A DNA stretch of 56,825 nucleotides. Source: Perkinsus olseni. Taxonomy: Eukaryota. Positions 49,001 through 52,000 of this stretch are shown piece by piece. The DNA is taken from NCBI GenBank assembly GCA_013115125.1, contig JABANN010000176.1, forward strand, positions 1 through 56,825, written 5' to 3'. A model generated the notes under the pieces. That model ran no database searches, had not been told where the DNA came from, and saw only the letters and a program-made list of their open reading frames with translations. The translations under genes were made by a program, and so were the position numbers. Numbering within the stretch: position 1 is the stretch's first letter; each line of letters opens with the position of its first letter.

Positions 49001-52000
49001 GTTTAATTTGTGCGAAAAAATTTCGAAAAATTATGAGAAGACTCTAGACGAAGATGAATGTTGGCCGTCTCTGGCGATATTGTGAGCTTGGTTGAGGTTT
49101 GGTAGTTCTTTAATGCGGAATTTTACGGTCGTAACATATTTTATCATTATTAATATGTATTTAATTTTCAAAGGGTTATTGATTATTCAAAATAATTTTC
49201 CTTATTGATTTTATCGATTTTATTGAAGGCACGTGTAACAGTATTTTGGCGATTTTTTTTATTATTCGAAATCAGCGTGACTTGGATTGGTGTCTTCAGT
49301 CGCGCGTTCATCCTTGCTCTCCTCCACGGGTTGGGAATGCCCTCCTCGGAGTTCTCTGTTGGGCTCACGAGGGTCTTCCTGAGGGCGAGGCAGTTGGAAT
49401 TCTTGGAGAAGCTGAAGGGAAGTGGCGAAGCTCAGGTGGGTATCCTCATGTCGACTCTGGGAGATACAAAATAGATTGAAGTGTGCATCCTGTAGGTTGA
49501 TGAGGATATCATCAAGGAAGTTCTCGCGAGAGTTGCGAGGCAAAGGTTTAAAAGCGCCGTCCACGCAGTCATTATCTGCCAGAGACTGCCTAAGATTCTC
49601 AAGGCCTCCAAGTGAGGGTTCCTCGTATCATTCAGAGTCCAATCTTCCTGCTCTCAGGCGTCTCCGCACACTGGCGATTTTCGCTGATAAAATTTGGCTG
49701 GTCTACAGGATAAAGCGGGCTACCTCGAGGCTCCTCGCCGCGGCACGGAGGGTGAGGTTACGGGAGGAATTAATCTTTTTCTCTTTGCACTAATGTAGCC
49801 AAGTAAGTGCAAATTGGAACTTGGCCTGCTCGTGCTGTCGCTTGTTGAATTTGATTGTGACCCACAGTCAACTTCAACAAGCGACAGCAAAATAGCAACT
49901 TCCCACAATTTATGGGAGAGCAGATAAATGCCGTAGAAACGTTATTGGAATGGGATTTGGTCGTTGGAAAGTATCCTCAGTGTGAGAATTCTGCAGTTCT
50001 GCAGCGAACTTTCAAGTGTAGTTCGTCATAATTTTCCATGAATTTTTTCGTATACGAATATTTTCCAACTGAGTTTGTACAGTAGAGCAAGTCTTCGGGT
50101 ATCAATGGTGTGTCGAAAGGAGGCTCCCGTCAGGTGATTGATGAGCGGAACAAGGAGAACCAGCGTTTGGAGGAGCTGCGCATCCAAGCTGCTTTGAAAA
50201 TGCAAGAAGACGAGGAGGCGAAGGAAGCTGCTATGAGGCGTGAGGAGGAGAGGCTGAAGAAAGTGGAAGAGGAGAGTCGAAGGAAGTTGGAGGAGTTGAG
50301 GAAGAAAGATGAGGAGAATCGGCTGCGGTCGGAGAAGCGGAAGCATGAGGGCGGTGATGGCAGCTCAGTCAAGGACGGCCGATTCGTATCCCCCTCACCA
50401 GTGCTGCCCTCCAGGAAGCTCCAGTTTGACGCGCGAGCAGCCGAGGTGCGAGGTGAATCTTGCAATCTTGCTTTACCTCTATGTTTGGTGGTGGATGTTG
50501 ACTGGGTTGTTTGTCAGGGCCCGATATCGAGTCCGTGTGATTTGTCCTTCAAAAGTCCGGCGAATGGAGGGTCGGTGGAGAGGCAGTCGATCTACCATTC
50601 TGTAATTAATCAATCTCCGGGGAATACGCCGGATTGGATGAATGTGGAGAAGCATGAGAGGCGGCATATTGGTAATAAACACCCACCGTGGGGCTCGAAC
50701 CCACGACCACAAGGTTAAGAGCCTTGCGCTCTACCGACTGAGCTAGACGGGCTTATTGTGGTGGGTAGTTGATGGGCATTTTGAGCTCTCTCAGGCAGCG
50801 CGCTCGACGCCTCCCTCTGTGATGACCTCTATGCGGACGGGAGCCAGCAGGTGTGACAAATGGGAGATCTCTCCCAAACACTCCCTCAGAGAATATCCTT
50901 CCGTTCAGCCGCCCTTCTGCCCCGTCCCTCGAGTCTTCCTCACCATCAACAACTTCGTTGAAGGGAAGCACATGAGCGACAAGAAGTGGGGCGTGGCCGG
51001 CTCGAGCGTGGTAGGAGTCGTGGCCGGCTAGTTGGGCTCTGACTGAGGGTCAGGTCCGCTCCAATGGAGTTGTTGAGACGGCCTTGTTCTTCGATGCTGA
51101 GAGGAGAAGGTTAGTGGCGGCGGATGTAGGCTAGGGAAGTGTGGAGAATCTTAGCTTGAAGCTTGCTCAATATGGTTAGGGTTGAATCCTTTGCAAGGAC
51201 GAAACCGCGAGTTAGCGTGATTGTTATCCCTGTCAAAGGCGAGACCGTTTTCGTTAGCCGACCTCTCGCTCCTCAGCTGCCCCTCTGCGGTACCGGTTCG
51301 AGACGGGAGGTGCCCTTGGTGGCCTCACACGCATACGTGGTCGACCCGATACGGAGCACAGTCGTGGAGGAAGGTAGGTGGAGAAATGCCGGGGGGTCGG
51401 ATCGAACCGGGGACCTACAGGTGAGACGGCGGAGGAGCCTGTTGAAGCGATCTGTCAACACCCTAACAAGTTAGACATTTTTGCAACTACAAACGGGAAG
51501 GATGTGGTAAGAATTCGAAATCTTGCTATCTTGGATTTCCTCAATGAATCTTCCAAGGTCGTGTGGTGCTGGCATGGAGATCAGCCAGGAGGGTGGACTA
51601 ACACTCCTCCCGAGACTAACAGTATTCTTGAGGCTAAGTGTGTGATATCTGACATGCTTGGCAGAGCTCCTGCATGTATAAGGTGAGAGAATCTTTCAGT
51701 CATGCTTGCACTTGGTAGGTTAACCTTTCGGCAGCATATCTTTTAGGTTGATGACTTTCCTCCCCCACGGCAATCGAGTCCTGCTGGTAACTGTTGTTGA
51801 AGTCAGAGACGTAAGTGGCATACCTTCGTCTCGATGATGATGCGCCTTTTTCAGAGTATCGGCCAGGGTGGAGCACTTCGACACATCCTCAGACTGGATG
51901 AGGTAGTATCTATCGCCCCAGGCTCGGAGCTACAGACTGTTGCAGAATATATTAGTCGGATCTCGCGGATGCGCCCTTTGCTCTGGTGATGACGATGAAT

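Follow-up and report, generated by a model that had tools for sequence, protein, structure and literature searches.

The 56,825-nucleotide (nt) contig JABANN010000176.1 of the clam parasite Perkinsus olseni (assembly GCA_013115125.1; hereafter the window, from which all fragment counts below are taken) contains a plus-strand myosin gene, and one short intron of this gene harbors a complete transfer RNA (tRNA) gene, tRNA-Lys, in antisense orientation. Near this locus, some twenty worn tRNA tail pieces lie in tiny introns. The first coding exon of the plus-strand gene, which begins at position 43009, is 98% identical to three annotated P. olseni proteins with a myosin head (PF00063).

ARAGORN identified the tRNA-Lys as a 73-nt minus-strand gene with anticodon ctt, in agreement with the earlier note, which had placed an intact tRNA-Lys(CTT) 8 nt inside the donor of a myosin intron. 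Its score against the Rfam model RF00005 is 64.7 bits (E = 7.8e-12; model positions 1 to 71 of 71), above the gathering score of 29, as befits a cytoplasmic tRNA and in the same range as the 72.9, 67.2, 64.6, and 42.2 bits of the other four tRNA genes found in the window by ARAGORN. Only these five tRNAs, and none of the fragments described below, were returned by Rfam across the window at E ≤ 1. The tRNA-Lys folds into a standard cloverleaf whose acceptor stem includes three G.U pairs; its minimum free energy is ordinary relative to shuffled sequences (z = −1.1), a measure that is uninformative for tRNAs. The 3′ trailer consists of three T, one A, and two T and contains no T4 run.

The tRNA-Lys looks like one of many copies of a multicopy tRNA family, given the high read depth over it and the alternative flanks that meet at its end. 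In two DNA runs from related strains, the bin containing the gene (50166-50832) is about 20- to 30-fold deeper than its neighbors, with a depth of 2754 in run X7, where the adjoining bins have ~81, and of 1773 in run X8. Contigs with differing flanks meet at 50680, and in X7 the contig over the myosin gene breaks off within the tRNA-Lys.

The other four tRNA genes (Thr-AGT, Val-CAC, Gln-TTG, and Val-CAC) form a cluster at 6895-10064, a stretch with no open reading frames (ORFs) recognizable by Pfam. One tRNA-Val (7031-7150, including 46 nt of 3′ flank) recurs at 9944-10063 with 85% identity, and the T arm of this second copy, which scores 42.2 bits, is broken. A run of at least four T residues shortly 3′ of the gene is absent in three of the four, tRNA-Thr alone having one if its last base is counted. 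Since T4 runs are missing after most tRNAs of the window, the sequence suggests that RNA polymerase III termination signals in P. olseni may be shorter or different.

The intron around the tRNA-Lys was delimited with P0015, a partial P. olseni protein of 1,014 residues, named “hypothetical protein” and bearing a myosin head, that was found from the exon downstream of the interval and is 100% identical to that exon over the aligned part. Using a protein-to-genome spliced aligner written for this mapping, we placed P0015 at 47902-54661 in 28 exons separated by 27 introns, with a phase-1 junction at 50671|50795 and a frame that remains consistent through the two exons that follow. The donor GT lies at 50672-50673 and the acceptor AG at 50793-50794, which gives an intron of 123 nt; left unspliced, the upstream frame runs for 15 further codons to a stop at 50716-50718. 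The P0015 tail after the junction resembles other myzozoan myosin tails in sequence, aligning in a seven-sequence database with P0007 (E = 7e-5, 26% identity over 152 columns) and P0006 (E = 1e-4), both of them longer myosins of other origin, and because of this alignment the myosin gene is taken to continue past the stop. Junction, frame, and tail homology together led us to accept the interval as an intron of the U2 GT-AG type, whose removal restores the frame into conserved downstream coding sequence; the claim of the earlier note that it is a myosin intron and not a gene boundary is thereby upheld.

The converse, that the stop at 50716-50718 terminates the myosin gene and the tRNA lies at its boundary, was already disfavored and now strikes us as barely credible. 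The upstream frame does stop inside the interval, and the RNA joint at 50672-50794 is absent among the 15 joints listed of 97 from runs X6, X7, X8, and X10; yet the annotated model crosses the junction, the frame works through the next two exons, and homology to the P0007 and P0006 tails begins right after it. Some joints with sides of only 20 to 24 nt (38833, 44202, 50456, and others) had been dropped as chance short matches when the sequences were read. Among metagenome contigs, 23 pattern matches to relatives of the myosin were obtained, none of which was confirmed.

The tRNA-Lys is packed tightly against the donor. The intron is made up of 8, 73, and 42 nt: the tRNA 3′ end lies 8 nt inside the donor, beyond a 6-nt A-rich stretch, so that donor positions +3 to +8 are the complement of the T-rich trailer and signals for two polymerases share the same letters. 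Without the tRNA, which occupies 59% of the intron, 50 nt remain (123 − 73), an ordinary intron size in the window: among 48 non-nested introns supported by P. olseni models, distant homologues, or RNA-like contigs, those no longer than 72 nt (30 introns) have a median length of ~49 to 50 nt. From this arithmetic we infer insertion into an ordinary mini-intron, the tRNA copy having probably landed directly behind the donor of an intron that already existed.

A tRNA gene contained in an intron (50680-50752 within 50672-50794) is ordinary in kind, while its packing against the donor is unusually tight. In Caenorhabditis elegans, 44 to 47% of tRNA genes are reported to be intronic to protein-coding genes, with 56% of the intronic ones in host orientation (passages of PMC4999229); in our window the share is one of five. 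Like the C. elegans nested tRNAs, the tRNA-Lys appears to be an RNA polymerase III gene in its own right, housed by an intron of an RNA polymerase II gene, an arrangement found in either orientation. Unlike them, it sits in a host intron of only 123 nt, of which it makes up more than half, and the complement of its trailer forms part of the 5′ splice site.

Fragments of tRNA genes were sought with a 37-column profile (variable loop, T arm, and 3′ strand of the acceptor stem), seeded with 14 T-arm sites and iterated with nhmmer. In the 56.8 kb it matched 25 sites at E ≤ 0.1, 24 of them at E ≤ 0.01, and nothing in each of 30 dinucleotide-preserving shuffles. Three of the sites are intact tRNAs and 22 are decayed fragments, 20 of which lie in gene bodies, one in an intergenic pseudo-tRNA (26287), and one upstream of the myosin start (42378). 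The genic fragments are divided equally between the two orientations, 10 sense and 10 antisense to their gene, with genes at 10.6 to 24.6 kb assigned to the minus strand by ORFs, Pfam matches, and GC skew. They begin between the anticodon arm and the variable loop and share one layout, in which variable loop and T arm are followed by an acceptor strand, often with the same four terminal letters, and then by a T-run. By eye, the acceptor of sense fragments is found 6 to 18 nt past the T-run and the donor 4 to 17 nt before the variable loop, within the anticodon-arm region, and antisense fragments have the complement of the T-run within a few letters of the donor. The order donor, A-rich stretch, and tRNA 3′ end seen in the tRNA-Lys intron recurs, as had been claimed, in the four antisense fragment introns that begin at 15616, 16343, 23663, and 51374 (Table 1), and the first 8 nt of the third of these are identical to those of the tRNA-Lys intron.

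Four fragments lie in introns supported by gene models or homology, three of them in the myosin gene and one in a gene with RCC1 repeats. In the latter, the Pfam RCC1 (PF00415) match in ORF 36683-36856 reaches the end of the exon, and by eye the repeat resumes in frame after 36897. When the 36 supported introns of 170 nt or less were scored with a leave-one-out position weight matrix (PWM) of the module, five were clear, with 19.9 to 40.9 bits that none of 200 shuffles matched; these are the four fragment introns and the tRNA-Lys intron. Five more reached p ≤ 0.05, where ~1.5 are expected. Because the RCC1-repeat intron had joined the set owing to its own fragment, the unbiased share of introns with a clear module is 4 of 35.

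Splice-site signals around the 20 genic fragments point in the same direction. Donor and acceptor PWMs, trained on 44 fragment-free plus-strand introns, were applied up to 24 nt upstream (donor) and up to 26 nt downstream (acceptor) of the 30-nt core. The mean summed score at the fragments was 9.1 on the gene strand versus −16.7 on the opposite strand and −4.8 for 1,000 random cores; the gene strand outscored the opposite strand in 19 of 20 fragments (Wilcoxon p = 3e-5), and 12 of 20 exceeded the 90th percentile of the random cores. The implied introns are 41 to 73 nt long, as is ordinary for introns in the window. Continuity of the open frame across GT..AG pairs was nondiscriminating, with a median of 43 codons around fragments versus 37 at 400 random sites (Mann-Whitney p = 0.15).

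Table 1. Positions of the tRNA-Lys locus in the myosin gene and of introns with tRNA-derived fragments in the window
Feature	Coordinates	Strand	Basis
123-nt phase-1 GT..AG intron of myosin	50672..50794	+	P0015 mapping, frame, and homology
Donor GT plus 6-nt A-rich stretch, complement of the tRNA 3′ trailer (T-rich, weakly terminator-like)	50672..50679	+	Sequence
Complete tRNA-Lys(CUU) gene, 73 nt, antisense to myosin	50680..50752	-	ARAGORN and Rfam RF00005
Rest of the intron (42 nt), complementary to the tRNA 5′ leader and followed by the acceptor region	50753..50794	+	Sequence
Upstream myosin tail exon	50518..50671	+	P0015 spliced mapping, residues 359-410
Downstream myosin tail exon of 56 nt; next intron 50851-50908	50795..50850	+	P0015 residues 411-429
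47-nt phase-1 myosin intron, antisense fragment	51374..51420	+	P0015 mapping; profile 51399-51416; leave-one-out PWM 33.1 bits, 0/200 shuffles
65-nt motor-domain intron, sense fragment from the donor	47612..47676	+	P0008 (distant homologue) mapping, frame change; profile 47621-47650; PWM 32.8 bits
91-nt myosin intron, antisense fragment on the acceptor side	45320..45410	+	P0002 mapping; profile 45366-45394; PWM 31.3 bits
53-nt phase-0 intron of the RCC1-repeat gene, sense fragment, T-run into the acceptor	36845..36897	+	Profile 36862-36892, 24.9 bits
Putative 48-nt intron, antisense fragment	15616..15663	-	Profile match; boundaries from splice-site PWMs, no gene model
Putative 55-nt intron, antisense fragment	16343..16397	-	Profile match; boundaries inferred, no gene model
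Putative 50-nt intron, antisense fragment	23663..23712	-	Profile match; length by PWMs, no gene model
Putative 83-nt intron, longer decayed sense tRNA-like copy with D-arm-like and anticodon-arm-like parts	30842..30924	+	By eye
Putative 98-nt intron, longer decayed antisense tRNA-like copy	35379..35476	+	Profile 35385-35403; by eye
Putative intron, antisense fragment with a CTT-reading anticodon-loop remnant	41400..41470 (approximate)	+	Profile 41407-41425; by eye

On these grounds we favor, with modest confidence, the reading that the tRNA-Lys is nested in a genuine myosin mini-intron and that the fragments are older, 3′-anchored tRNA-derived insertions. The tRNA-Lys would be an independent RNA polymerase III gene; the myosin pre-mRNA would bear nothing but its complement, which splicing would take out. 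Its copy most likely entered an old mini-intron of ~50 nt right behind the donor, and the tRNA-Lys intron would be one instance of a genome-wide habit. The fragments would be 3′-anchored insertions, for example 5′-truncated copies, and would survive only in places where they are spliced out, the T-run of sense copies serving as the polypyrimidine tract and its complement in antisense copies as the A-rich donor region.

Several points weigh against this reading. P0015 comes from gene prediction in a different P. olseni assembly and not from an experiment, and the absence of its junction among the listed joints has been mentioned above; run X6, an RNA-like run (“RNA” being a guess), has the five introns of the neighboring gene 36986-38842 spliced and covers myosin with unspliced, low-depth contigs only. 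The sum of 50 and 73 nt is suggestive only and falls short of proof. With a trailer of just TTT-A-TT, RNA polymerase III termination of the tRNA-Lys copy may be weak, and another repeat could supply part of the excess depth in its bin. Ten of the 20 genic fragments depend solely on splice-site scores and an assumed strand, because the minus-strand genes at 11 to 24 kb are without gene models: a search with an ankyrin ORF gave no protein of 264 to 2,000 amino acids, and the first exon matched none of 1.84 billion representatives. Fragment 23032 has no good pair of splice sites.

The fragments are old, decaying copies. Their T stem is fully paired in 5 of 22 and has three pairs or fewer in 11 of 22, compared with five of five pairs in each of the four intact tRNAs tested, and their pairwise identity over the 30-nt core averages 0.62 with a maximum of 0.83. 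They also derive almost entirely from one end of the gene: with models built from the five intact tRNAs only, the extra matches at E ≤ 1 numbered 21 for the 3′ part and one for the 5′ half (E = 0.68). In the final profile many fragments reach ~20 to 25 bits and the tRNAs themselves 14 to 16. The start of the 50-nt myosin intron 44008-44057 resembles the complement of a tRNA D arm, with ten letters identical to the complement of the tRNA-Lys D stem and loop (by eye); the 5′-half profile does not detect this sole candidate for a 5′-half remnant seen in supported introns.

The series drawn in the earlier note, from intact tRNA through near-full-length decayed copies to T-arm-only pieces, amounts to decay in place, in which tRNA genes settle in introns, die, and shrink. 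The longer decayed copies on which that series leaned are indeed present, one sense (30842-30924) and one antisense (35379-35476), together with the pseudo-tRNA at 26288-26358, and the geometry of donor, A-rich stretch, and acceptor-strand complement is common to the tRNA-Lys intron and the four antisense fragment introns. Eroding T-stem pairing also fits, as does the CTT-like anticodon loop at 41407, the only Lys-like hint among the fragments (by eye), and selection to keep a splice site beside the terminator end could favor survival of one half over the other. This is countered by the 21-to-1 excess of 3′ over 5′ parts, which argues against symmetric decay in place. Further, sense copies are as frequent as antisense ones and have donors within the anticodon-arm region, and the fragment introns, with a core of ~30 nt in 41 to 73 nt, leave few lengths intermediate between 123 and 50 nt, the tRNA-Lys intron itself being an ordinary 50 nt plus the tRNA. 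None of the fragments resembles tRNA-Lys in particular, blastn-short finding between the tRNA-Lys and the fragments nothing beyond generic tRNA positions (best other match E = 0.68), and the fragments are closer to one another than to the local tRNAs (identity 0.62 versus 0.56). Thus the decayed copies and the shared geometry of the proposed series stand, while the 3′ bias, the equal sense share, the normal fragment-intron lengths, and the lacking Lys match speak against a single series, and we regard decay in place as rather improbable. The data do not show that the fragments descend from intact intronic tRNAs like the tRNA-Lys.

A copying process may account for the 3′ bias, which is what 5′-truncated reverse-transcribed copies made by target-primed reverse transcription are expected to display. 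As with tRNA-derived short interspersed elements (SINEs) or retro-pseudogenes, the copies are dispersed and go back to an RNA polymerase III tRNA template. In SINEs, the 5′ tRNA head that bears the A and B boxes is kept and is joined by a body and a tail. The fragments differ in lacking the 5′ half and in ending in a genomic T-run rather than in CCA or poly(A); the single weak extra 5′ match against 21 for the 3′ part speaks against a 5′ head of the SINE kind.

The fragments can also be compared with introners. In both cases, members of one repeat family occupy numerous short introns in genes unrelated to one another, sense as well as antisense, and the splice sites coincide with the ends of the repeat or lie close to them (passages of PMC9860276, PMC12130899, and PMC7789003). 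Related, though diverged, copies were found as 20 genic fragments, in 5 of 36 supported introns, and in at least three genes. Signs of introner gain did not appear: no pair exceeds 83% identity over the 30-nt core, and no duplications were seen by eye. The fragments differ in that what is repeated is a tRNA gene's 3′ terminus plus its T-run, with neither terminal inverted repeats nor target duplications in evidence; the window copies are also old, with a mean identity of 62%. In Amoebophrya the introner elements are inverted-repeat introners and not tRNA pieces, as described in PMC7789003 where these elements are treated, and the words tRNA, SINE, and Perkins have no occurrence in the main texts of two broad introner surveys (PMC9860276 and PMC12130899).

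One may also ask whether the tRNA-Lys intron itself was born in this manner, a tRNA copy with short flanks having entered an exon and made the intron, with the trailer complement providing the donor. The donor hexamer is indeed the complement of the tRNA trailer, and in either orientation the splice sites of fragment introns coincide with the ends of the tRNA-derived sequence or lie close by, as they do for introners (PMC9860276, PMC12130899, in part). Such a birth would leave unexplained the 42 non-tRNA nt that separate the tRNA 5′ end from the acceptor, as well as a non-tRNA remainder of exactly normal intron length. No target-site duplication was seen by eye at the tRNA-Lys flanks, where AATAA and TTATT form an inverted and not a direct repeat. 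Strain X7, 1.4% divergent, also carries tRNA sequence at the locus, so there is no presence/absence difference from that strain. Apart from small gaps, one contig of X7 covers 37985-50704, so that none of the fragments at 41407, 45366, and 47621 is missing from it. We therefore hold an introner-like birth of this intron to be unlikely, and prefer the later arrival of the tRNA-Lys in a mini-intron that was already there.

It is very unlikely, in our view, that the tRNA-like modules are functional intronic elements maintained by selection, such as splicing enhancers of the nimtRNA kind or B-box sites bound by TFIIIC. The T loop with its B-box-like letters is the best-preserved part of the fragments, a conservation that is partly a product of the detection method, and human intronic tRNA look-alikes are described as promoting splicing (PMC7722341, in part). 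The nimtRNAs are, like our fragments, tRNA look-alikes sitting in the introns that interrupt protein-coding genes, but they are of mitochondrial origin and keep a cloverleaf that their action needs, unlike the fragments, which are cytoplasmic-type 3′ pieces with decaying stems (comparison with passages of PMC7722341). A maintained cloverleaf is not what we see, the 5′ half being absent and the T stem being full in 5 of 22; because the stems are decayed, with half of the fragments affected, a functional role of the hairpins is unlikely. Moreover, sense and antisense copies are equal in number, and 31 of 36 supported short introns have no clear module.

If the fragments are 3′-anchored insertions, as we favor, a bolder possibility follows, which we put forward tentatively and consider doubtful: 5′-truncated copies of tRNA genes or of their primary transcripts may constitute a tRNA-derived kind of introner in Perkinsus. 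The terminator T-run would give the polypyrimidine tract and acceptor of sense copies or, as its complement, the A-rich donor of antisense ones, the insert being spliced out in both cases; a tenth or more of the introns of the lineage may have been seeded in this way; and the intact tRNA-Lys would be the full-length form. The related Perkinsus marinus, according to passages of PMC3706591, has over 500 tRNA gene copies in five types, and its Dada elements are DNA transposons of 4.7 to 11 kb that insert into tRNA genes. Our locus is similar in genus, in the many tRNA gene copies, and in mobile DNA tied to tRNA genes; unlike Dada, nothing of such size or kind flanks the window fragments. In the matched passages of PMC3706591, the word “intron” refers only to transposase genes.

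Our literature searches turned up no account of tRNA fragments in Perkinsus introns; supplements and Repbase lay outside these searches and may hold such a family. The origin of new spliceosomal introns is a long-standing question, answered so far mostly with DNA transposons that bring splice sites along or recruit them. In this window the cell's own tRNA genes appear to be a recurrent building block of introns of 45 to 65 nt, and the tRNA terminator end appears to double as a splice signal in both orientations, which hints at tRNA-gene debris as raw material for P. olseni introns. If true, intron gain would be tied to the unusually large tRNA gene families of Perkinsus, and there would be a simple rule, open to testing, for what makes a DNA segment spliceable from the outset.

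Some further features of the window were noted. Mapping of P0015 requires a 30-nt GC..AG gap at 51973-52002, which is probably an annotation or haplotype difference and not a real intron. The annotated myosin model contains long “introns” of 250 to 420 nt (48016-48407, 48561-48813, 48960-49299, 49752-50133, 52926-53302, and 53793-54215), in contrast to the majority of 40 to 70 nt, and some of them may conceal unannotated exons. A short tandem duplication together with a marginal tRNA-Asp-like call is present at 53905-54100.

Lowering the ARAGORN threshold to 90% added three calls, two of them marginal, and at 80% there were 44 calls, mostly noise; the tRNA-like copy at 30842-30924 escaped both Rfam at E ≤ 1 and ARAGORN at 90%. 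Among the extra calls at 90%, and made only at that threshold, is the near-full-length pseudo-tRNA at 26288-26358 on the minus strand, which is Cys-like and has an acceptor stem of mostly G.U pairs. It lies just upstream of an intronless 380-codon CoA-transferase family III gene (24980-26122, minus strand; Pfam E = 2.4e-60), which occupies a lower-GC stretch (0.44) of an otherwise intron-dense region. The end of the window, 56160-56825, is a high-copy repeat with 140-fold single-copy depth in X7 and high depth in X6 as well; it has no Rfam match and contains six tandem units of ~20.5 nt at 56604-56747.

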